Source: Flavonifractor sp. An100 | GTDB taxonomy: Bacteria; Bacillota; Clostridia; Oscillospirales; Oscillospiraceae | Length of the DNA stretch: 24,000 nt | NCBI RefSeq assembly: GCF_002161175.1 | Contig: NZ_NFMA01000003.1 | Coordinates: 47,770-71,769 of the forward strand | Direction of reading: 5' to 3' | Shown: positions 2,012 to 14,503 of the stretch, one piece after another | How the letters are laid out: every line of letters starts with the position of its first letter | Numbering within the stretch: position 1 is the first letter of the stretch | Translations under genes and position numbers: made by a program | Notes under the pieces: generated by a model | Database searches by the model: none | What the model was told of the DNA's origin: nothing | The model's input: only the letters and a program-made list of their open reading frames with translations

Positions 2012-2046
2012 AAAGGGAAACCCGGATTCAGTCCAGGTTTCCCTTT
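2012..2046. terminator. Bidirectional rho-independent terminator between the convergent 1699..2004 gene and res
   Basis: AAAGGGAAACC (2012-2022) pairs with GGTTTCCCTTT (2036-2046). On the minus strand it is followed by TTTTGTGTTTTATT. Confidence 0.7.
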
Positions 2047-2069: not shown

Positions 2070-5000
2070 TTACAGCCGCTCACGCAGTTCTGTCCAGCTA
2101 GTGGCAGCCTCCAGCTCCACCCCAGCGTTCAAGGCTTTGAAATGCTCCTTGCCGCAGTGAATTTTCAGCTGCTCACTGGTTTTCAGGTGCATAAAGCTGG
2201 TGTCGCCCTTGGTTTCCAGGACAAAATACAGCTTTTCCTCACCATTCTTGTTGAGATACACAGCCCAGTCGGGGTTGTACGTGCCGATGGGGGTTTCAAT
2301 TTTGAATCGGCTGGGAATCTTGAAGAACATCTTCACATCCGGGTCGTTGTCCAAGGCCACGGCAACCGGCTTCTCCACCGTGGAGCTGTCGTAAACCACA
2401 TAGTCATAGACGCTGTGTTCCACCTTTACGGCGTTCCGATCCAGGTTAGCAAGCAACTCAGTGGTGTCGAAGATTTCCTGCACATAATATTCCTGGCCGT
2501 CCAGCTTCACATAGCGGATACCGTCGATAGCCAGGGCGTGGCGGTGGCTGCGGATCAGCTCTACGACTTGCTCCAGAAATGCCTCCGGGTTGTTGAGAAA
2601 GTCCTTGCACCGTCCACTCCCCACCAGAATCCGATTGATGGTGGCCGGGGTCAGCAGCGTTTCATCGCTGATGGCGGTAATAATGTCCGGCAGGGCCTGA
2701 TAGTCGTTGGCAATATCCATTGTCCGCATTTCCCGTTCTATGTGACTGATTCCAGCCTGTTCAATATGGATGTCGGCGGTCTGGGACACCAGTCGGGTTT
2801 TGGGGATATGGGGCATTTCCCGGATAACTTTGACGCAGTTCTCCACAAGCTGCTCGGTGTCAATGCTCACCCGATAAGCGGTTTTCTGCTTGATCTTGTT
2901 CCATAGCTCCAGGAACTCCGGGGAGAGCATGACTTGTTTGTTGAGCCGCACCACCACATCACGGGAAGCATCCCGCACCGGGGGCTTCCGGTCGGCATTG
3001 GCGATAATCTGCTCAAACCGCTCTCTGGCAGCTTCATATTTTTTCGGCAGGTCAAGGGTTCCGTTTTTCAGAGCGTTCTTCATGGTGTCCTTGACCTTGC
3101 CGGTGCTGGTGATATACCCCTTTTGCTCAAAATGTTGCAGCAGCTCGGTTGCTTCCTCGTGGGTGACAGTGTGTTCCTCCACCACGGTTTCCGTGTAGGT
3201 GGTTCCGGCCAGGGATTCCACCGCCACCGGCTGGGCCTTTTCTACGATTTCCTGTACCACTTCTTTGACAGGCTCCAGCGCCTTGGGCAGCTCGATTTCC
3301 CTGGGCTTGATTGCAGCGGCCACCTGACCAGCCTCATCAATCACACCAGCGGTTTTCAGGGCCGCTACTACCGCCTGGGCCTGTTCAGTCGTTACCTGCT
3401 TCTCTACGTCCCGACGGGCCTCATAGACCATGCCGGAAAACAAACTAAGCTGAAGCACACCAAACTTGACGCCGGTTTCGTCCTCGATCTCCTTTTGGAG
3501 GGTGGAGGCAAATTCGGCAAAGCTCTCGTTGGCCATAACGTGAAGGACGTTGATGTTCTTATCCTCGATACGCTCGCCGTCCTGGTTCACGCACAGGCGC
3601 AGGCCACGGCCCACCTTCTGACGGCAGGTAAAGGTGGACTTCTGCTCGATCAGAGTGCAAACCTGGAACACATTGGGGTTGTCCCAGCCTTCCCGCAGCG
3701 CCGAGTGGGAGAAAATAAACCGCAGCGGACACTCAAAGCTGAGAAGCCACTCCTTGTCCCGCATAATGGTGTTGTAGGTGTCATCGTCAGCTTGGGTGTC
3801 GCCTTTGGTATCCTTCAGACGGCCCTTCTTGTCCTGGGAGAAGTAGCCGTTATGCATCTTACTCACGTCTGTGGTAAACCGCTCCTGAAGGACGGCATAC
3901 TTGGGTTTCGCCATCAGCTCCTGGTAGCACTCCTCAAACATGGTGGCATAGATGCCGGGGGTGCCGTCCTCGTGGCGGTACTTGTCCACCTTGTCGATGA
4001 AGAACAGGGACAGTACCTTGATACCCTTGTCCAGATACCGCAGCTCTTTGTCCAGGTGGGTTTCGATGGTGCGCCGGATCTGCGCCTTCTTGACGATGTT
4101 CTCGTCTACATCGCCAATGGCCTTGCCCAGCTTGACCTCTTGGGTGTTGCCGAACTCGATATGCTCAAAGTCGGGGGTACAGTCGATTCCGGCGACGGTG
4201 TAGCCTTCATACAGTTCCCGTTGACCGGAGAGCAGGAACAAATCGTCTCCCGGCTTGACGGTCATGGCCTTTCGGGTCACGGCTCCGGTCTTGCCCTTCA
4301 CATCCAGTTCTACCCTGGCCTTAAAGCCCTTGTCGTTGCTGACAGAAAGCAGCCGCACATAGGCTTGGTTGAAGCCACCGGCAATCTGATTGGAGGACAC
4401 GGCGATCTGCTTCACCAGCCCCATCTGGTAGGCATCCACCGGAGTCAGGCGGTAAAGCAGATTGATTTTTTCTCGGTGGGTAGCGGAGTACCGCAACACA
4501 CACAGGGGGTTCAACGTGGCAATGGCTTCCTTGGCCTTGGGGGTGTTGTCTACACTCTGGGGTTCGTCGATGATGACGATAGGATGGGTATTCTGAATAA
4601 AGCCCATGGCCGTCTCGCCACCCAAACGATCTTGGGCCTGGTTGATAATGTTCTCCGCCTTCTTGAAAGCGTCGATGTTAATAATCATCACTTCGATGTT
4701 GGAGCTGGTGGCAAACTGCCGCACATCGGACAATTTGGCAGAGTTGTAGATGAAGTACCGGCACGGCACATTGTCATATTGCAGGCCGAAATGCTCCTGA
4801 GTGACTTGAAAGGACTTGTAGACGCCCTCCCGGATGGCCACCGACGGCACCACAATGACGAACTTGGTAAACCCGTACTTGCGGTTCAGCTCAAAGATGG
4901 TCTTGGTGTAAACATAGGTCTTGCCGGTGCCGGTTTCCATCTCGATACAGAACTGGCAGCGTGACGCTGCACCCAATGCGCCTTCGGCGGCGGGTTCCAA

Positions 5001-5228
5001 GTCAGTGAGTGGTAAACCATTCCGCTTCTGGACAGCGTGCATATTGGCGGTCAGTGTTTCCTGGTCGATGTAGAGGGCGTTGCCCTGGCCCAGTTCAGGG
5101 AGAAGGGAAGTCTGCCGATCATCCACCACGGAGAAGGTGCTTTTGGTTTTCTCCTGGCCAGTAAATAAGTCCACCACGGCGTTGACTGCGTCCGTTTGGA
5201 AGGCTTGATTTTTGAATTTAAGTTTCAT
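2070..5228 (-). CDS. res: Type III restriction endonuclease, Res subunit (SF2 helicase + C-terminal PD-(D/E)xK nuclease)
   Basis: 1052 aa. The N-terminus MKLKFKNQAFQTDAV is typical of Res. Motifs seen: Walker A METGTGKTYVY, motif II IVIIDEPQSV, motif VI QKVGRGLRL, and nuclease core YNPDWAVYL...LYFVLETKG. The SD AAGAGGTGA overlaps the upstream stop. Confidence 0.9.
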   Translation of the reverse strand: MKLKFKNQAFQTDAVNAVVDLFTGQEKTKSTFSVVDDRQTSLLPELGQGNALYIDQETLTANMHAVQKRNGLPLTDLEPAAEGALGAASRCQFCIEMETGTGKTYVYTKTIFELNRKYGFTKFVIVVPSVAIREGVYKSFQVTQEHFGLQYDNVPCRYFIYNSAKLSDVRQFATSSNIEVMIINIDAFKKAENIINQAQDRLGGETAMGFIQNTHPIVIIDEPQSVDNTPKAKEAIATLNPLCVLRYSATHREKINLLYRLTPVDAYQMGLVKQIAVSSNQIAGGFNQAYVRLLSVSNDKGFKARVELDVKGKTGAVTRKAMTVKPGDDLFLLSGQRELYEGYTVAGIDCTPDFEHIEFGNTQEVKLGKAIGDVDENIVKKAQIRRTIETHLDKELRYLDKGIKVLSLFFIDKVDKYRHEDGTPGIYATMFEECYQELMAKPKYAVLQERFTTDVSKMHNGYFSQDKKGRLKDTKGDTQADDDTYNTIMRDKEWLLSFECPLRFIFSHSALREGWDNPNVFQVCTLIEQKSTFTCRQKVGRGLRLCVNQDGERIEDKNINVLHVMANESFAEFASTLQKEIEDETGVKFGVLQLSLFSGMVYEARRDVEKQVTTEQAQAVVAALKTAGVIDEAGQVAAAIKPREIELPKALEPVKEVVQEIVEKAQPVAVESLAGTTYTETVVEEHTVTHEEATELLQHFEQKGYITSTGKVKDTMKNALKNGTLDLPKKYEAARERFEQIIANADRKPPVRDASRDVVVRLNKQVMLSPEFLELWNKIKQKTAYRVSIDTEQLVENCVKVIREMPHIPKTRLVSQTADIHIEQAGISHIEREMRTMDIANDYQALPDIITAISDETLLTPATINRILVGSGRCKDFLNNPEAFLEQVVELIRSHRHALAIDGIRYVKLDGQEYYVQEIFDTTELLANLDRNAVKVEHSVYDYVVYDSSTVEKPVAVALDNDPDVKMFFKIPSRFKIETPIGTYNPDWAVYLNKNGEEKLYFVLETKGDTSFMHLKTSEQLKIHCGKEHFKALNAGVELEAATSWTELRERL

Positions 5229-5234
5229 GCCTGT

Positions 5235-5753
5235 TCACCTCTTAAACAACCGCAGGAACAGGGTATAGTTCCATAAAAGATTATCTGCTTCAATGGAGTG
5301 CTGAATATTGATAATCTCATATTTGATTCCAACAATATTTTTACTGTCCATGTAGAGCTTGAGATTTTTATAGCTCTGCACAACATCAAGTTGATTTAGT
5401 ATTCCATTGTCAAGCACCTGATCTATTTTTGAAGTCAAGTTCCGATATATGTCTTGATTTCCTGTTTCACAATACAGGGCTGCTCGTTCGTAGGCGGTTT
5501 TTAGTGCTAATAGTGCATCTTTGCGTATGTCAATCTGCATTTTTCGCACACCAACAATAATTACTTCGTATATCGTAAAGCAAAAAGCAATCCGTTCAAT
5601 CCAAAGCCACAAAGTATTACCGCTGGAGATAGGGGAAAGGAATGTAGAAAGATAAGCAAGTAAGAATGGAATACCAATGTATTCGATTGTTCCAAGTAGG
5701 CAATGCACAGTGGTTTTTGTGATTACATGAAACCATTTTAGAGTGTTATTCAT
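5235..5753 (-). CDS. Uncharacterised membrane protein, 2 predicted N-terminal TM helices plus a helical C-terminal domain of about 100 aa
   Basis: 172 aa. Hydrophobic segments are VHCLLGTIEYIGIPFLLAYLSTFL and LWLWIERIAFCFTIYEVIIVGV. The ATG at 5753 is preceded by GAGGAAG, 7 nt after the mod stop. Its stop lies inside the res SD. It is AT-rich (line 5341-5400 is 21/60 GC by hand count). Confidence 0.6.
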   Translation of the reverse strand: MNNTLKWFHVITKTTVHCLLGTIEYIGIPFLLAYLSTFLSPISSGNTLWLWIERIAFCFTIYEVIIVGVRKMQIDIRKDALLALKTAYERAALYCETGNQDIYRNLTSKIDQVLDNGILNQLDVVQSYKNLKLYMDSKNIVGIKYEIINIQHSIEADNLLWNYTLFLRLFKR

Positions 5754-5760
5754 ATCTTCC

Positions 5761-7617
5761 TCACACCAGTTTCAGCTCAATTCCATGATCCCGCAGGATA
5801 TAGTAGGCATTTGCCATAGCGGTATCGTCGGCAAAGCTGTCACGGGAGATAATGATTTTAGCCGGAGCATATTCGGTCATTTGCTCCACGTCCTCCGGCT
5901 GCACATCTTCGGCCAGACAGACCAGCAGCAGGCAATCATCGCCCACGCCATAGACGGTCTTGTTGTGGATGGAGAACGGGGTCACGGAGTAGGTCAGCGG
6001 TACACCCAGCTTCAGCATGATTTCATAGATCATATCCAGGTCGGTACGCTCCGGCTTTACCCGGTGAATCATGGTATTCATTCGCTGGTACAGCAGGTCG
6101 AGCTGCTCGTCCTCAATGGGGGTAGCGTCCCAGGTTTTCAGATTGGAGGTGTCCAGCTTAAAGACACGGAAGCCCACGTCCAGGGGCTGCTTGTCCTCCT
6201 CCATAGTGACTTGGGCGTGTTCCTCCAGGATTTTCTTTCCGGCCCGCCGGATTCGCTCCTTGCCGATCTCGCAGATATTCTTGTACCCGGCCTTATGCGC
6301 CTCGCTCTTTTCGTCGCACAGCTCGGGAAGCTGCACCAGAATAAAGCGCCGGTTGCCGCCGTCCTCGGCATTGAGCTGCATCACCGCATGGGCGGTGGTA
6401 GCGGAGCCAGAGAAGAAGTCGAGAATAATGTCATCATTTGAAGTTGAAATCGCAAGACACCGCTGTATTAGTTCAACTGGTTTAGAAAAGTCAAATATCT
6501 TTCCGCCAAATAATTTTGTTAAGCCTTGCGCAGCAGATTGGGTATGACCAACCTCTGTGTTAGGCCACCATGTCCAAAGATTGCGTCCTGCTCTTTCCGA
6601 GAGATATGTTTTCTTTCTTGGAACACCCTTTCCATCTGCACCAAACCAGATTCGCCCAGCAGCTATTTCTTCGTTCATTTTATCCTGTGTATATCGCCAA
6701 CACAGGCTGTCAGGCAATTCGATAACCCGTCCAGCAGGTGTAACCATAGTATAAAATTGGTTTTTCGTTCCGTGACCAGCTTGTGCTGTGCAATCAGTCG
6801 AAATCCACGGCCCTCTGGGGTCGTTATCAGGATTTTTATAAGCTGCTTTGTCCTTTTCAGAAAATGGTAGCAGCTTTATAACTTGGTTACTATTCTGAAT
6901 GTTTTTTGTATAGACAAGGATGTATTCGTGCCCCGGGCTAATAACCCGTCGTGCATCTGGTGATGTACGTTTTTGCCATATAATCTGTGCTATAAAATTT
7001 TCCTCGCCAAACACTTCATCACAAACTTTTCGCAGGTTTGTGACCTCGTTATCATCAATCGAGATAAAAATCACACCATCATCCCGCAGCAGGTTTGCCG
7101 CCAGACGCAGACGGGGATACATCATGTTGAGCCAGTTGGTGTGAAAGCGGCCCATGGTTTCCGGGTTGCTCTTGGTGGTCTGCTGGGTCACTTCCTTGTA
7201 CCGGGCCATGGGATCGGCAAAATCATCGGCATAGACAAAATCGTTGCCGGTGTTGTACGGCGGGTCAATATAGAACATCTTCACCTTGCGGTAGTAGGCC
7301 GTTTGCAGCAGCTTCAAGACCTCCAGGTTGTCGCCCTCGATGTAGAGGTTCTGGGTGGTGTCCCAGTCCACGCTTTCCTCCTGGCAGGGGCGCAGGGTTC
7401 CGGTGGAACGCTTCTGGGCCAGCCGCAGGCAGTCCGCCTTGCCCTTCCACTCAAACTTGTACTTCTCAAAATCGTTGTCGATGTACTCGCCGCACAGAGA
7501 AAGCAGCTTGTCAATGTCCAGCTTGCCCTCGCTGACGCACTCCGGGAACACCGAGCGCAGCTTGTCCAGGTTGCTTTGTTCTATGTTCATGGAAAGTCCG
7601 TCAAGTATATCAGGCAT
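5761..7617 (-). CDS. mod: Type III DNA methyltransferase, Mod subunit (beta-class N6-adenine/N4-cytosine MTase)
   Basis: I trimmed the track ORF to the ATG at 7617, which has AGGAGG 9 nt upstream (7627-7632). Motif IV is FYIDPPYNTGNDF and motif I is ILDFFSGSATTAHAV, with a long variable region between them, as in Mod proteins. Confidence 0.9.
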   Translation of the reverse strand: MPDILDGLSMNIEQSNLDKLRSVFPECVSEGKLDIDKLLSLCGEYIDNDFEKYKFEWKGKADCLRLAQKRSTGTLRPCQEESVDWDTTQNLYIEGDNLEVLKLLQTAYYRKVKMFYIDPPYNTGNDFVYADDFADPMARYKEVTQQTTKSNPETMGRFHTNWLNMMYPRLRLAANLLRDDGVIFISIDDNEVTNLRKVCDEVFGEENFIAQIIWQKRTSPDARRVISPGHEYILVYTKNIQNSNQVIKLLPFSEKDKAAYKNPDNDPRGPWISTDCTAQAGHGTKNQFYTMVTPAGRVIELPDSLCWRYTQDKMNEEIAAGRIWFGADGKGVPRKKTYLSERAGRNLWTWWPNTEVGHTQSAAQGLTKLFGGKIFDFSKPVELIQRCLAISTSNDDIILDFFSGSATTAHAVMQLNAEDGGNRRFILVQLPELCDEKSEAHKAGYKNICEIGKERIRRAGKKILEEHAQVTMEEDKQPLDVGFRVFKLDTSNLKTWDATPIEDEQLDLLYQRMNTMIHRVKPERTDLDMIYEIMLKLGVPLTYSVTPFSIHNKTVYGVGDDCLLLVCLAEDVQPEDVEQMTEYAPAKIIISRDSFADDTAMANAYYILRDHGIELKLV

Positions 7618-8140
7618 CTTTTTGTACCTCCTGAGTTGTTGCTTTAGACACATTTAGATAGTCCGGGTGCTTATGGAGCAATTCAAATACCCACGGTTGA
7701 ATAAATCCTGGGGATAGCCCTCGTGGCGCAATGCTTGTTCCAGACGGCTGAGAAATAATTCCAAAAGTTTTGAGTTTTTGTGCCACCGGGTCCATCATTG
7801 AAAAGAGAATCGCTGTTTGTCCCTTGTCATAAAACTGTTTTAAATAGACTTTTTCTACATCTGAAAGATTCTTCAGAATGTATTTATATGTTCTCCATGT
7901 GTTGATTTTATTCCATTTCCGTTTGGTAAAACCAATAATGTATTTCATAATATAAGAAATGAGTAGCGAAGCAGATATTGCAAAAATAATAAAAAACCAT
8001 ATCCCATATTTTTCTCTAAATGCGATAATATCAAATGGCAGAAAGGTTGCAGGAAAGAAAAGCAAGAATATACTGGCAAAACAGATTGCAAAGGAGGCTC
8101 TAGCAGATGTATCTAAAACTTTTCCTATATCAAAATTCAT
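7610..8140 (-). CDS. SieB-like (superinfection exclusion protein B family) 2-TM membrane protein
   Basis: 176 aa. Two N-terminal TM helices are SFAICFASIFLLFFPATFL and GIWFFIIFAISASLLISYIMKYIIGF. These are followed by LKNLSDVEKVYLKQFYDKGQTAILFSMMDPVAQKLKTFGIISQ...FIQPWVFELLHKHPDYL. From memory, this pattern matches SieB-family proteins (LSxxEKxxLxxF...T..L...D..V..L...GII...qPW...L..nP). It is very AT-rich (line 7981-8040 is 15/60 GC). Confidence 0.5.
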   Translation of the reverse strand: MNFDIGKVLDTSARASFAICFASIFLLFFPATFLPFDIIAFREKYGIWFFIIFAISASLLISYIMKYIIGFTKRKWNKINTWRTYKYILKNLSDVEKVYLKQFYDKGQTAILFSMMDPVAQKLKTFGIISQPSGTSIAPRGLSPGFIQPWVFELLHKHPDYLNVSKATTQEVQKDA

Positions 8141-8143
8141 TTA

Positions 8144-10795
8144 TCACACCTCAACTTTAACCATAAATTCCCTCTGCACCTTTGCCGTCAGCTTTTCCTT
8201 GTCGGCAAAGGACTTTATTTTTTCTTCCAGCTCTACATCCAGGCGCATAGCGTCAAAGAACTGGCTCTCCTGCCGCTTCATGTATTCCTGCCGAAGCTGG
8301 GTTACTCTTTTCTGCGCAGACAGCCGTTTCAGCCGGTCGCCGGTGACGGCCTCCAGCTCCGCTTGGGCCTGCTGAACCTGGCTGTCTAGGGTGTTCAGCT
8401 CACGGCTCAATGCCGCCTTATCAGCGGACACCTGCTGCTTCATCCGTTCCATTGCCTCGGCCTGGGCGGGAGACAAACGCTCCAACTGCGCCTCCAGCAG
8501 CGCCTCCTTTGGCACCAAATTATCCAGCGGGTGGGGACGGCTGCTCCCTTTTAACCAGTGGGGAGATCTCCGCTCATCCTCGGTGTAATTCTCCACCGGC
8601 AGCTCCAGGATGCTGCGGCAAGCTGCATCGTCCAGGGCTTTGCCGCTCTCCGTTAGGCCACATAGTACGGCGTGTTCCGTGCGGCTGGAGCCTGATACCA
8701 GAGTCACGGTATAGAGGGCAATCTGGCACGGTTCCGGCGCTGTTGGAACAGTCAGCACTCCCTCATTGGCGCTCTCCAGCTCGTGGAGAATCCCACGGCC
8801 TATGATGCTGGACAGGGTAATCTGTCCGGCCTTGGGTTTGAAGTCCTTTGCCATGCCGTACATCTTCTGGCTGCGATAGGGCCGGTTTCTGCTCCCCGTC
8901 CAGTAGTAGAACAGCACCGGCAGCTCCCGGTACTTCGTGGCCGTAATGGTACGGCTGGCTTCGTCGATCACAAAATGGCAATCGTCGTTCTTTTCATTGT
9001 AACGGTTGAAGAACCATTTGGCAATCTCCCAAAGGTCGTTGTTCAGCTCCTGCCCACGGCGATTCACATACTTGGGGTTGATCTTCACTTTGTCGGCCAA
9101 CTCCTTGGTGAAGGTGGTAAACAGAATATCTTCCGCTGCGGAAACGGTCTGCCGGTTATCTTGCTCGTGGGTGTCCAGGGTCTGGCGGTATGCCTGCTCA
9201 ATCTGCGCCCTGGGCCGCAACCGCTGGGCAATGACCGGAAAGGCCGCTTTTACATCATCCGTAAAACCGCCCAGCACGTCATCGGTAATGCCAAAGACAC
9301 CGTCTGTCACCAGCATCCGCTTGTTGACCAGCTCCAGCTTGCGAACATCGGCAAAGTTGTTCTTGTCGATGAAGGCCACAGACAGCACATCGTTCTCCTG
9401 ACCCAGCCGGTGGCAGCGGTCGATACGCTGCTCCAGCTTTAAGGTGTTGTACGGCAAGTCGTAGTGGATGATGAAAGCAGCCTCCTCCAGATTGAAGCCC
9501 TTGGCACCGTTATCGGTGGAGATCAGCACCTCGCCGTCCTCTTTGAACCGGCGGATCACGGAGTAATCGGCGCTACCATTATAGGCCAAGGTGTAGTACT
9601 GCCCGGAAAGAAGATCCTGGAGCATCTTCTGGGTTTCCACGCTCTCGGTGAAGATAACGACTTTCCGTCCGGCTCCCGTTTTCTTCATCAGAGAAAAGCC
9701 CTGTTTGAGAACGGTCAGCAGCTCACCGGCCTTTGCATCCTGTGGGATGCTTTCTGCCACGGTCTGAATCTCTTGCCATTGGGTCAGCTCCTCCGCTGCG
9801 TTTTCCAACCCCTGGAGCCGCTTGACGATACCTTTGATGGTTTGCAAAATTGCCGCCGTAGAGGAACCCAGCAGGCCCAGCAGCCGTAGAGCCAGGTCAT
9901 ATTGGTTCATTTCGGGAAAGGCTCTCTTTTCCGGCTGGTTGATGTAGGCGTACAGCAGCTCATAGAGCTGCCGCTCTGCCTTGCCGGGGGTGTACTCCAC
10001 GGTCAACAGCACACGCTCCGTCACCTTGGCGTAGTGCTTGGCCTGGGAACGGAGGGTACGGAAACAATAGCGGCTGACCTGTTCGCTGAGTTCCGGGTAG
10101 TTCTCCGGTCGGCGCAGATACCGGGCCAGAAACTCTTTTTCTCCCGGCAGCAGCGTTTCGTCGATGAACCAGATCACGCCGTACAAGTCCATAATGTTCT
10201 TTTCGATGGGGGTGCCGGTCAGCAGCAGCTTGAAGGAGTCTCCGGCGATCCGCTTAAGGGCCTTGGCCTGTTTGTTGTCCTCTTGGTAGACCGGGGACAG
10301 GGCGTTGGCTTCTTCAAATACCGTCAAGTCCCAGTTGACCACCTTTGCGGCCTCCTCGTTGTCGGCGGCAAAGTCATAGGTCGTAATGACAATGGCATCC
10401 TGAATAAAGGCGTTGGGATGGTCGGGGGCACTGTAGGCCTGCCATTCTTTGCGGCTGGTCAGAACCACATAGGGAACGGTATAGAACCGATCCAGCATTT
10501 CCGTCCATTGGTACAGCAGGTCTGCATTGGGAATGACCAGCAGAATCCGGCTGCATCCCTCCAGCCACTTTTGATTGATGACCAGCATGGCCTCGTGGCT
10601 CTTGCCCATACCGGCTTCATCGCACAGGACAGCACCTTTCTGATAGGGGGAACGCAGGGCAAAGCTGGCCGCTGCGATCTGAAACGGATAGATTTCAATA
10701 TCCGATGAAGCAAAGACCGGGAGGAACTGTTCTTCCTCGGGTAGCTGCTCCAACAACCGAGCCTTGTAATAGGCATGAAATGGTGTTTGCAGCAT
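8144..10795 (-). CDS. SNF2-family (SF2) ATPase/helicase with a long C-terminal extension ending in a coiled coil
   Basis: 883 aa. Motif I is LCDEAGMGKSHEA. Motif II is the variant DLTVFEEANAL. Motif III is LLLTGTPIEKN and motif VI is QRIDRCHRLGQ. The last 110 aa or so are heptad-like and Q/E/K/R/L-rich. An AAGGAGGG SD lies upstream of the ATG at 10795. Confidence 0.85.
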   Translation of the reverse strand: MLQTPFHAYYKARLLEQLPEEEQFLPVFASSDIEIYPFQIAAASFALRSPYQKGAVLCDEAGMGKSHEAMLVINQKWLEGCSRILLVIPNADLLYQWTEMLDRFYTVPYVVLTSRKEWQAYSAPDHPNAFIQDAIVITTYDFAADNEEAAKVVNWDLTVFEEANALSPVYQEDNKQAKALKRIAGDSFKLLLTGTPIEKNIMDLYGVIWFIDETLLPGEKEFLARYLRRPENYPELSEQVSRYCFRTLRSQAKHYAKVTERVLLTVEYTPGKAERQLYELLYAYINQPEKRAFPEMNQYDLALRLLGLLGSSTAAILQTIKGIVKRLQGLENAAEELTQWQEIQTVAESIPQDAKAGELLTVLKQGFSLMKKTGAGRKVVIFTESVETQKMLQDLLSGQYYTLAYNGSADYSVIRRFKEDGEVLISTDNGAKGFNLEEAAFIIHYDLPYNTLKLEQRIDRCHRLGQENDVLSVAFIDKNNFADVRKLELVNKRMLVTDGVFGITDDVLGGFTDDVKAAFPVIAQRLRPRAQIEQAYRQTLDTHEQDNRQTVSAAEDILFTTFTKELADKVKINPKYVNRRGQELNNDLWEIAKWFFNRYNEKNDDCHFVIDEASRTITATKYRELPVLFYYWTGSRNRPYRSQKMYGMAKDFKPKAGQITLSSIIGRGILHELESANEGVLTVPTAPEPCQIALYTVTLVSGSSRTEHAVLCGLTESGKALDDAACRSILELPVENYTEDERRSPHWLKGSSRPHPLDNLVPKEALLEAQLERLSPAQAEAMERMKQQVSADKAALSRELNTLDSQVQQAQAELEAVTGDRLKRLSAQKRVTQLRQEYMKRQESQFFDAMRLDVELEEKIKSFADKEKLTAKVQREFMVKVEV

Positions 10796-10834: not shown

Positions 10835-10863
10835 ATTATGTCAGATTTTAGGGGAAAAGGCAA
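10835..10863 (-). promoter_or_regulatory. Candidate promoter TTGCCT-17 nt-CATAAT for the SNF2-mod-res operon
   Basis: On the minus strand the -35 is at 10863..10858 and the -10 at 10840..10835, with a 17-nt spacer. It lies between the strong terminator at 10873-10915 and the SNF2 start. Confidence 0.4.
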
Positions 10864-10964: not shown

Positions 10965-12506
10965 TCAAATTTCAGTATAAGAAATGCTATACTCAAAAAG
11001 ACGCATTTGGGAATCCTGTTTGACTTTTCTTTTAAGTTCAGCAGTAGGGCTATTCAAACATATAAGGCCGTAAACGTGTTGTCCGGACTTCGCAATATCT
11101 GCTTCTACCCATTCAATATATGTTTTAGTTTGTGTGTACGCATCATCGTAACCGGAGTCTTTTTTTAGCTCAATCACATAAAGGTCGTTGTTATTATCTG
11201 TTGCCAAAATATCAAGTCTACCAGTACGAAGAATAAATTGTCTGCCGTACACGCCCCTTTTTTGATAGACCTTTAGTGAAAGACCAAAAACCGGAATGCC
11301 CTGTTCCATTCTCTGAATTAGTTCATCTTCAAGAAGTTTTTCACTGGTAAATTGATGCTTTTTTATTCCTATGTTAATCGTGGAAGTGTCTGCTGCACTA
11401 TCTTGTGAATCTGTATCCACATCACATTTTTTGGTTGCCAGGGGACGTCCAATTCTAGCAACGAGTTGTTTTGACACCTTATATCCACTTTTCTCAACAA
11501 ATTCTTTTGCCTTATCTTGCTGACCTAATGCCAAATAAGTACGAACGAGATTGTTTGCCGCAAAGCGTGTATCTCTTTTCTCCGATAAACATTTGCGAAA
11601 TACATCTTCAGCATCATGGTATTTCTTCTGCTTAAACAAACAATATCCCAGGTTATTCAAGGCGTTTTCTGCCTCTGGAAAAACTTCTAATGTTTTTCTG
11701 TAATATGCTTCTTCTAACTGATAGTTGCGCTTTTTTCCATAGCACCAAGCCATCCAAAAGTAAATATTGTCCGTATAGAATATGCCTACACGATCTTTTA
11801 CATCCTCATATTGTTCTAAATACGATAGAGCGTTGTTCCACATCTGCATATTATAATAGGTGTATCCCAATAGTTCTTTCGCCAAATATATATCTCTGTT
11901 GGTTTGCAACACTCGCAACAGTGCATCTGCAATATCTTCATTTTTTGTCCCGTAATAAACGCTTTCCAATGCCTCACACATTTCTGGAATACCTATACAT
12001 ACGCCGGGTCTATCGAGCAGTTCTCGCAAATAACTCCACATTCCAGGAATGCCTTCTTTTAGCGGTAAGACCAGACAATAAATAAAGTCTGAGCATGACA
12101 TTTCTTCATCTTCAGCCAAATAACGCTTTATCTTTGCAGGAACATACTGTGCGAGCCTTTCGTTAATTGCTCCAGATTTTCCGGTAAGTAAGTCAATTAC
12201 TGCAAAATATATTTGCTTGATGGGGTCACCGTCCGATAATCTTATAACAGAATTTCGGTATTCAATAAAGCAGGGATCTTTCATAACATCGCATTTCATT
12301 AGCTCTGAATATCTGAGATACCCCATTGTCAAGCTATCTAAAAGCAAGTCGCAGTATTTACTCTGCAATTCGTCATGAAATACAGGGGAGGCAGATATTA
12401 TAACATTTCGGCATTCTTGAAAATTAGGTTCCTTGGAAAAATCAAGTTGGTCATATGCTTGACAAAGCTTGTTTTGATAATGAATAAGTTCCTTTGATTC
12501 TGCCAT
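10965..12506 (-). CDS. TPR-repeat protein with a C-terminal PD-(D/E)xK nuclease domain (NucS/DUF91-like)
   Basis: 513 aa. TPR-like repeats span roughly aa 200-345 (e.g. AYYRKTLEVFPEAENALNNLGYCLFKQKKYHDAEDVFRKCL). The C-terminus GRLDILATDNNNDLYVIELKKD carries a D...ExK core (nt about 11163-11213), then YIEWV...VYGLICL. AGGAGG lies 8-9 nt upstream of the ATG at 12506. Confidence 0.7.
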   Translation of the reverse strand: MAESKELIHYQNKLCQAYDQLDFSKEPNFQECRNVIISASPVFHDELQSKYCDLLLDSLTMGYLRYSELMKCDVMKDPCFIEYRNSVIRLSDGDPIKQIYFAVIDLLTGKSGAINERLAQYVPAKIKRYLAEDEEMSCSDFIYCLVLPLKEGIPGMWSYLRELLDRPGVCIGIPEMCEALESVYYGTKNEDIADALLRVLQTNRDIYLAKELLGYTYYNMQMWNNALSYLEQYEDVKDRVGIFYTDNIYFWMAWCYGKKRNYQLEEAYYRKTLEVFPEAENALNNLGYCLFKQKKYHDAEDVFRKCLSEKRDTRFAANNLVRTYLALGQQDKAKEFVEKSGYKVSKQLVARIGRPLATKKCDVDTDSQDSAADTSTINIGIKKHQFTSEKLLEDELIQRMEQGIPVFGLSLKVYQKRGVYGRQFILRTGRLDILATDNNNDLYVIELKKDSGYDDAYTQTKTYIEWVEADIAKSGQHVYGLICLNSPTAELKRKVKQDSQMRLFEYSISYTEI

Positions 12507-14041: not shown

Positions 14042-14503
14042 TCATATCTTTATAAGATGAACTTCTTTGCCAAGCGTATGTGCACAGCGCATGGTAAATA
14101 GAGTCCCGCCGTGATCACGCCCATCATAGACAGCAATTACCCGCTGTGACTGGTGTACCATATAGCGATTTCGTTGCATGAAACAGGATGGAACATACTT
14201 TTCGCATTCTACCTTGACGCCATTGCAGGCCTGCAGCAGCTCGTGGAACTGCTGATTTTGGGTTTTCAACCTCCCGGCATGAGGAATAGCCGCTTCCAAA
14301 AACAACTCCGGATGCTGTGCTTTTTCTTCAGCCACGATAGAGGCAAACATTAGGTCAATTCCTTCAGCAAAGCCGGATATAAACCGAGTATAGCCATCCT
14401 CAATCGCTGATAAAATTTCACACCTAAGTTCTTTCTCCACATAAGTAATGCGATCTGCGGAAATTTCTCTGTGTCCAGTCACACAACAAGTTTTTTCATT
14501 CAC
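14042..14503 (-). CDS. SLOG-superfamily DUF1273 (YpsA/YoqJ-like) protein
   Basis: 153 aa with a GTG start at 14503 and GGGAGG 7 nt upstream. It carries the signature CVTGHRE near the N-terminus and FISGFAEGIDLMFASIV, as in DUF1273 proteins of Firmicutes phages and mobile elements. Confidence 0.65.
   Translation of the reverse strand: MNEKTCCVTGHREISADRITYVEKELRCEILSAIEDGYTRFISGFAEGIDLMFASIVAEEKAQHPELFLEAAIPHAGRLKTQNQQFHELLQACNGVKVECEKYVPSCFMQRNRYMVHQSQRVIAVYDGRDHGGTLFTMRCAHTLGKEVHLIKI

Follow-up and report, generated by a model that had tools for sequence, protein, structure and literature searches.

Gene X, as it is named here, lies between the modification gene mod and the restriction gene res of a type III restriction-modification operon of Flavonifractor sp. 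An100 (5235-5753, minus strand; all positions, unless a locus is named, refer to the window, that is, to the whole stretch of 24,000 nucleotides that was analysed). X truly encodes a protein, is subject to purifying selection and represents a family that has not been described. It is an AT-rich passenger in a recurrent slot of a five-gene operon residing on a conjugative element of gut Clostridia. Its passenger status follows from the low GC content, from a synonymous divergence below that of the flanking genes, and from the presence of cargo in 11 of the 25 resolvable mod-res junctions. As to the function, the reading that we favour, with a confidence slightly short of even, is that X may be an autonomous membrane-acting passenger of the abortive-infection or exclusion type, an add-on defence module. 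This reading is derived entirely from genomic context.

The host operon and its relatives

All genes of the region are transcribed from the minus strand, in the order TPR-nuclease, SNF2, SieB-like, mod, X, res. The first gene of the operon encodes a SNF2-family helicase, DrmD-like (8144-10795; Pfam SNF2-rel_dom and Helicase_C; PADLOC DrmD, E = 2.9e-92). The slot between SNF2 and mod is occupied by a gene encoding a SieB-like two-helix membrane protein of 176 aa (7610-8140; Pfam PF14163, E = 5.4e-21; PHROG 6399). The operon belongs to the type III restriction-modification systems by both of its subunits, the Mod methyltransferase (5761-7653; Pfam N6_N4_Mtase; PADLOC MTase_III, E = 7.5e-220) and the Res subunit with an SF2 helicase and a C-terminal endonuclease domain (2070-5228; Pfam ResIII and RE_endonuc; PADLOC REase_III, E = 0). 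The longest ORF of mod starts at 7653. However, the true start is likely the ATG at 7615-7617, as it has AGGAGG upstream, overlaps the stop codon of the SieB-like gene (ATGCCTGA) and gives a better profile alignment.

The SNF2 gene is preceded by a promoter-like site with an upstream TG (TTGCCT-17-CATAAT, 10835-10863, minus strand; a consensus match only), and res is followed by a strong terminator-like hairpin with a 15-bp stem and a T run (2012-2046, minus strand). No comparable promoter or terminator site was found in the operon interior between these two. Just upstream of the operon there is an AT-rich gene encoding a TPR protein with a NucS/PD-(D/E)xK-like C-terminal domain (10965-12506, minus strand; PADLOC candidate PDC-S02, E = 7.6e-16), a further cargo gene of the defence type. 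Conjugation genes encoding a coupling protein, PrgI, a VirB4-like ATPase and an NlpC/P60 hydrolase are situated farther upstream, and thus the defence region is cargo of an integrative conjugative element. A YpsA/SLOG (DprA-like) protein of 153 aa is encoded between the conjugation genes and the defence cargo (14042-14503).

The X ORF starts with ATG and its translation is 172 aa long. At the mod/X junction (5754-5766) the mod stop codon TGA (5761-5763) is embedded in the ribosome-binding stretch GTGAGGAAG, and a spacer of 7 nt (5754-5760) separates it from the ATG of X (5751-5753). The same layout is present in four other loci (L001, L002, L007, L053) and in the relic locus L005. At the X/res junction (5226-5243) the last codons of X together with its TGA (5235-5237) form the Shine-Dalgarno box of res, AAGAGGTGA, with the TGA at its 3' end; the res ATG (5226-5228) follows after 6 nt. 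The initial annotation had described X as tightly fitting the gap between mod and res, and the sequences of both junctions bear this out. The overlapping signals and the lack of internal promoters and terminators suggest that X may be co-transcribed and translationally coupled with its neighbours.

One possibility is that the X ORF serves mainly as a translational spacer that tunes or delays the synthesis of Res, so that modification would precede restriction in a new host. The placement of the mod stop codon inside the ribosome-binding site of X, and of the X stop codon inside that of res, is in line with this role, which gains support from the documented delay of Res translation in EcoP15I (PMC12707154). 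However, the dN/dS ratio of X, calculated for the window and a sister operon, is 0.08, specific residues are nearly invariant across the family at 20-40% identity, and proteins of the family occur also in contexts with no res downstream. We consider a spacer role very improbable. A chance ORF is ruled out by the conservation and the dN/dS ratio.

The GC content of X is 36.6% (GC3 37%), compared to 50.8% (GC3 61%) in mod and 54.6% (GC3 72%) in res; the range for the mod, res and SNF2 genes is 51-56%, with GC3 of 61-72%. The AT-richness had been noted from the segment 5341-5400, and a recount gave the same value of 21/60 GC. Two other genes of the window are AT-rich, the SieB-like gene (35.6% GC) and the TPR-nuclease gene (37.6% GC).

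Copies of X with 98% identity were found in Gemmiger sp. An50, Angelakisella massiliensis, Roseburia inulinivorans DSM 16841, Anaerotignum lactatifermentans DSM 14214, several genomes of Clostridiales and about 20 contigs from human gut metagenomes. They are always situated inside the same SNF2-...-mod-X-res operon. A conjugative element has carried this operon into at least five named genera of Clostridia from the gut. Of the operon's proteins, X shows the highest conservation, with 98% identity as against 92-93% for SNF2, 88-89% for Res and 57-75% for Mod. In a comparison of the window with a sister operon, the synonymous divergence was 0.09 in X, 0.34 in the 3' end of mod and 0.54 in res. 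As the value for X is below those of both flanks, the X segment seems to have been shared more recently than they were, which suggests a separately exchanged cassette.

The centre of mod (6440-6970) cannot be aligned with the sister operons, and the sequences on both sides of it are ~90% identical. A swapped target-recognition region would fit this pattern and the drop in the identity of Mod. An insert of ~2 kb interrupts mod in many of the sister operons (L043, 3486-5901; also L012, L016, L038, L039, L044, L047), and X and res are intact there. The insert contains, on the opposite strand, aph(3')-IIIa, which matches PDB 1J7I over its full length (E = 1e-180), and two genes identified by eye, one for a sat4-like acetyltransferase and one, truncated, that is ant(6)-like. 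It is a resistance-gene cluster; a group II intron was considered and rejected, with no hit in Rfam.

In an 82%-identical relative (L050, 7040-8860) 1.8 kb with ORFs of 252, 198 and 82 aa are inserted between X and res. The slot is therefore able to hold more than one gene.

The X family and the predicted structure of its members

A word-indexed search with X produced 30 clusters with 47-98% identity, from metagenomes or Clostridia genomes, none of them named. An HMM search of 1.84 billion representatives yielded about 125 clusters (at 50% identity) matching the X family. Almost all of these are single-domain proteins of 155-200 aa, with a typical length of roughly 165 aa, in the range of about 160-175 aa. 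The family is rare, being found in 2/400 Clostridia genomes and in 2/401 phylum-wide genomes, with the window's own genome counted in both. In public sources X is a hypothetical protein or nameless, and searches of the published literature provided a general precedent and nothing on the X family.

No family match was found in Pfam, PHROGs, NCBIfam or PADLOC for either X or 63 diverse relatives. The best match in a sequence profile search of PDB with X had E = 4.1. The tblastn search of X against phage and plasmid collections produced no match, and no X relative was found in a scan of viral contigs. A phylogeny of 15 family members, considered for context switches, had no starred branches and long outgroup branches. 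The exact sequence of X (P0001 in the 90% cluster table) sits in a cluster of 1505 members represented by a 1051-aa protein, which has the length of Res and no similarity to X. Fused gene calls may have led to this placement, which is probably an artefact of the clustering.

Nine positions are conserved in at least 90% of cases across the 63 diverse members: E24, R54, Y62, D75, D79, H152, L159, W161 and K171. Firstly, they include nearly invariant polar residues in or beside the membrane helices (E24, R54, Y62). Secondly, the bundle contains a conserved set of acidic residues and histidine (D75, D79, H152, E155). Finally, there is a conserved C-terminal segment W161...LRLFK; the LRLFK motif is family-wide, and the proteins almost always end in this way.

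The membrane topology was derived from hydropathy and charge across the 63 diverse members. The 19-residue Kyte-Doolittle peaks of X itself are marginal, 1.56 and 1.59. In the family, the median peak is 2.21 for helix 1 and 1.75 for helix 2, and the value of 1.6 is reached by 60/63 and 47/63 members, respectively. The net charge is +2.7 ahead of helix 1 and -1.2 in the 10-residue loop, and this indicates the N-in, C-in topology with the tail in the cytoplasm. The AlphaFold2 model of X, built with 20 homologues, is all-helical (pLDDT 83), with helices at 7-39, 47-97, 100-115, 122-137 and 140-169, of which the helix 47-97 passes from the membrane into the soluble bundle. Residues 72-172 modelled separately by AlphaFold2 form a four-helix bundle (pLDDT 83, pTM 0.73). 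X is predicted to be a two-helix membrane hairpin (about 16-38 and 51-69) followed by a cytoplasmic four-helix bundle (about 72-169). The architecture proposed in the initial annotation, two N-terminal transmembrane helices and a helical tail, is supported by the model and by the hydropathy and charge of the family.

Comparison of the full-length model with PDB and viral structures by Foldseek yielded best E-values of 0.34 and 0.66. A fold search with the soluble tail, which had been suggested earlier, provided nothing specific: Foldseek reported generic four-helix bundles only (FliS, ESCRT-III), the best E being 1.2. The hairpin with the nearly invariant buried Glu and Tyr, together with the Asp/Asp/His/Glu bundle, would suit a membrane effector that is oligomeric and has its sensor or gate in the cytoplasm.

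Cargo slots, neighbourhoods and candidate functions

The mod-res junction is a recurrent slot for passenger genes in type III systems of Clostridia. The survey covered type III loci from 29 Clostridia genomes (L061-L089), with 25 resolvable junctions. In 14 of these mod and res are directly adjacent, with gaps ranging from an overlap to 18 nt, and in 11 (about 44%) there is an intervening co-oriented ORF. Three occupants belong to the RhuM family, an assignment confirmed by the 45% identity (E = 9e-90) with a RhuM protein labelled by Pfam, and four are unrelated small membrane proteins of 197, 219, 132 and 114 aa. Also found were a 263-aa protein of no recognised type, a GNAT-like protein and a four-helix-bundle-like protein, the last two recognised by eye. 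In the two closest Res relatives from the sampled genomes (69-70% identity) the place of X is taken by RhuM or by the unrelated 263-aa gene. Alignment of X with other membrane proteins of the junction or the slot upstream of mod (L074, L089, L041) gave hhalign probabilities below 1%.

X had initially been considered an acquired gene, partly because mod and res are adjacent as a rule. In this group the rule does not hold, the junction being occupied in 11 of the 25 systems. However, acquisition itself is favoured by other evidence: X is an AT-rich gene in a GC-rich operon, the closest Res relatives have other genes at this site, and the synonymous divergence of X is low.

The position upstream of mod also behaves as a cargo slot. 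The SieB-like gene is present in the variant from the window only and is absent from all sister operons, where this slot contains unrelated genes or none, and X is constant. An unrelated membrane protein of 256 aa is encoded there in L011 (5290-6060), L030 and L036, a protein of 218 aa with a membrane helix at its N-terminus in L041 (4382-5038), L042 and L045, and a 537-aa protein in L053 (3497-5110). All occupants of this slot are AT-rich relative to their neighbours. The initial annotation regarded two membrane genes of matching architecture in one operon as an argument for function; given this variability, the argument is weak. A second type III system of the Flavonifractor genome (L090, contig C35, 291-6928) is organised in the same way. 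It contains an AT-rich gene for a 272-aa two-helix membrane protein upstream of mod and, between mod and res with 4-nt overlaps, an AT-rich gene for a 297-aa soluble cargo protein, for which no sequence match was found in PDB.

Diverged relatives of X were found in several types of loci. The order mod-X-res is seen again at 60-70% identity of X (L001, L002, L007, L053); in L007 res is fragmented and X is intact. The type I settings are hsdM-hsdS-AAA-hsdR-X in L020 and hsdR-X followed by PDC-S11 and PDC-S53 genes in L003. In L004 X is situated in an island with an Nhi-like helicase, an integrase and ToxN. L005 contains an intact orphan X, and the similarity to the window DNA extends 90 nt into the 3' end of a dead mod, the stub of which has an in-frame stop, and 13 nt into the start of a dead res. 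The members from these type III, type I, ToxN and orphan settings form one subfamily with 54-70% identity.

More distant members were found in the early region of a prophage, beside SocA/Panacea and RelB (toxin-antitoxin-type) genes; upstream of hsdR and behind genes for reverse transcriptase, HD and Schlafen-AlbA proteins (L023); following genes for a Schlafen-type helicase and a methylase fragment of 82 aa; and adjacent to a KAP NTPase gene. Three contexts have no clear link to defence: L059 (protease, SSB), L095 (SAP, SpoVT, RimP) and L056. An entry-exclusion protein of the conjugative element was also considered. This candidate is ruled out, as a prophage and type I loci of chromosomes also contain members of the family.

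A distribution of homologues over non-defence contexts only had been named at the outset as the observation that would speak against a defence role. Such a distribution was not observed. By our count, loci of restriction, defence or mobile elements make up 8 of the 11 independent contexts, and in 5 of the 11 the gene touches a restriction component (type III mod/res, type I hsdR or a methylase fragment); these numbers are small, and many of the close loci are copies of one element. Such an association fits both a defence gene and a selfish passenger riding mobile defence loci.

The five contexts directly beside restriction components might be explained if X were a dedicated accessory of translocating restriction enzymes, whose bundle would bind the SF2 motor of type III Res or type I HsdR. 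It could tether the enzyme to the membrane at the place of DNA entry, or it could guard the enzyme in the manner of PrrC, being silent in the bound state and firing as a membrane toxin once a phage inhibitor strikes the enzyme. The tight translational coupling on both sides of X and the precedent of PrrC-EcoprrI (PMC12707154) are consistent with this. However, the X subfamily moves among type III, type I and non-restriction neighbours with little change in sequence. Further, X is intact in loci with an interrupted mod (L012, L043 and others), with a fragmented res (L007) or with both genes lost (L005). Finally, homologues of Res were found in 38/399 Clostridia genomes, whereas X was found in 2/400, one of these being the window's own genome, and most related type III systems have no X. 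All three observations argue for an autonomous protein and against an obligate subunit, and an accessory role is unlikely.

It is also quite doubtful that X is the founder of a class of membrane effectors plugging into type III and type I translocating restriction enzymes, such that the bundle would read the state of the Res or HsdR motor, stalled or inhibited by a phage anti-restriction factor, and the hairpins would form a depolarising pore. Were this so, the mod-res junction would be a general docking slot for interchangeable backup killers, a prospect that we view with the same doubt.

Another explanation is that X is a passenger whose role lies outside defence. Its product could, for instance, act in the membrane on behalf of the mobile element, or X could be selfish or addictive and take advantage of a permissive, well-expressed slot. 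Indeed, the slot accepts very different genes, including the GNAT-like and four-helix-bundle ones, and some members of the family are found beside housekeeping genes. The presence of a 98%-identical copy in at least five named genera on one conjugative element could reflect the success of the element. However, the gene is under strong purifying selection and has been retained in several unrelated defence islands and in the accessory region of a prophage. Moreover, RhuM and small membrane proteins, which also occupy the slot, are of kinds that have been put forward as conflict genes (PMC3710099). We regard a role outside defence as rather unlikely.

The preferred reading is that of an autonomous defence module acting at the membrane. 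In this case X would most likely oligomerise in the cytoplasmic membrane, and its cytoplasmic bundle would sense a signal during an attack by phage or foreign DNA. X would then either compromise the membrane, leading to abortive infection, or block the entry of DNA or phage development, leading to exclusion. It would form a second layer behind restriction, in the manner of SieB, RexB or Csx28-type proteins. The searches of Pfam, PHROGs, NCBIfam, PADLOC, PDB and Foldseek revealed no sequence or fold link from X to any known effector or exclusion protein.

Comparison with known systems

X defines an unannotated family of two-helix membrane proteins, and it is the best-conserved protein of a widely spread type III operon. 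The family is new to the libraries searched; the concept of additional genes embedded in restriction operons is already known. To our knowledge, neither embedded genes of the membrane-protein type nor the recurrent mod-res slot of type III systems have been described, and our literature searches found neither. The restriction-embedded second-line defences described so far are cytoplasmic nucleases or protein-modifying toxins. If the passengers are defence effectors, the slot would be a cheap place for finding new ones, and X would be a tractable candidate to begin with. Otherwise, the slot is still an example of how mobile genes exploit tightly coupled operons.

The two-helix effector domains of CBASS-like systems, such as SLATT, consist of a membrane hairpin with a helical extension and function in conflict systems. 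However, X has no associated nucleotide cyclase or sensor. The hmmscan search of the 63 members (alignment A2) against Pfam-A with E up to 0.1 listed 25 of the 41 matched families, and no SLATT family (SLATT/DUF4231) was among those listed. The hits were scattered and looked like chance ones, any one family being shared by at most 2/63 members (best E = 0.019). Csx28, the membrane pore associated with Cas13b, is a small helical membrane protein from a nucleic-acid-targeting defence locus, to which it adds membrane depolarisation. However, there is no CRISPR context at X, and Csx28 was absent among the Foldseek matches of the whole X model and of the tail to solved structures. A class II holin was considered and rejected: there were no holin hits in Pfam or PHROGs, the neighbours are restriction and not lysis genes, and a structured tail of 100 aa is atypical.

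SieB, the superinfection exclusion protein B of lambda and P22 (PF14163), is similar to X in several respects. It has ~175 aa, two N-terminal membrane helices and a cytoplasmic helical tail, and it is encoded on mobile elements. A true SieB-like gene is situated two genes upstream of X in the same operon. However, the conserved residues of X are different, and X is found in restriction operons, whereas SieB is found in phage immunity regions. X has no Pfam hit to SieB, the hhalign probability for the 63-member X profile against the SieB-like protein is 0.4%, and the BLASTP E-value is 0.48. This agrees with the initial annotation, where no sequence similarity between these two proteins was seen.

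RhuM (PF13310) occupies the same mod-res junction in the closest type III relatives lacking X (L061, L078, L079). However, it is a soluble protein of 330-350 aa with no similarity to X.

Second-line toxins within restriction operons include PrrC, Abi2, Ymh and RhuM, and have been interpreted as defences that are often suicidal (PMC3710099, PMC12707154). Like X, genes of the PrrC/RloC/Abi2/Ymh type are extra genes wedged into a restriction operon and spreading together with it. However, their products are cytoplasmic HEPN RNases or ATPase fusions, whereas X is a membrane protein with no nuclease or NTPase domain. The HEPN motif Rx4-6H is not conserved in the X family: H152 is 90% conserved, an Arg 5-6 residues upstream of it is present in a minority of members, and X itself has Glu there. 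A weak hit to HEPN_AbiV (E = 0.0098) was observed in 1/63 members, and no HEPN structure was reported by Foldseek. The presence of intact X genes with no intact partners argues against strict dependence on a restriction enzyme. In position, X follows the PrrC-type arrangement: it is found as mod-X-res in the window and in diverged lineages, as hsdR-X in L003 and L020, and as X-hsdR in L023.
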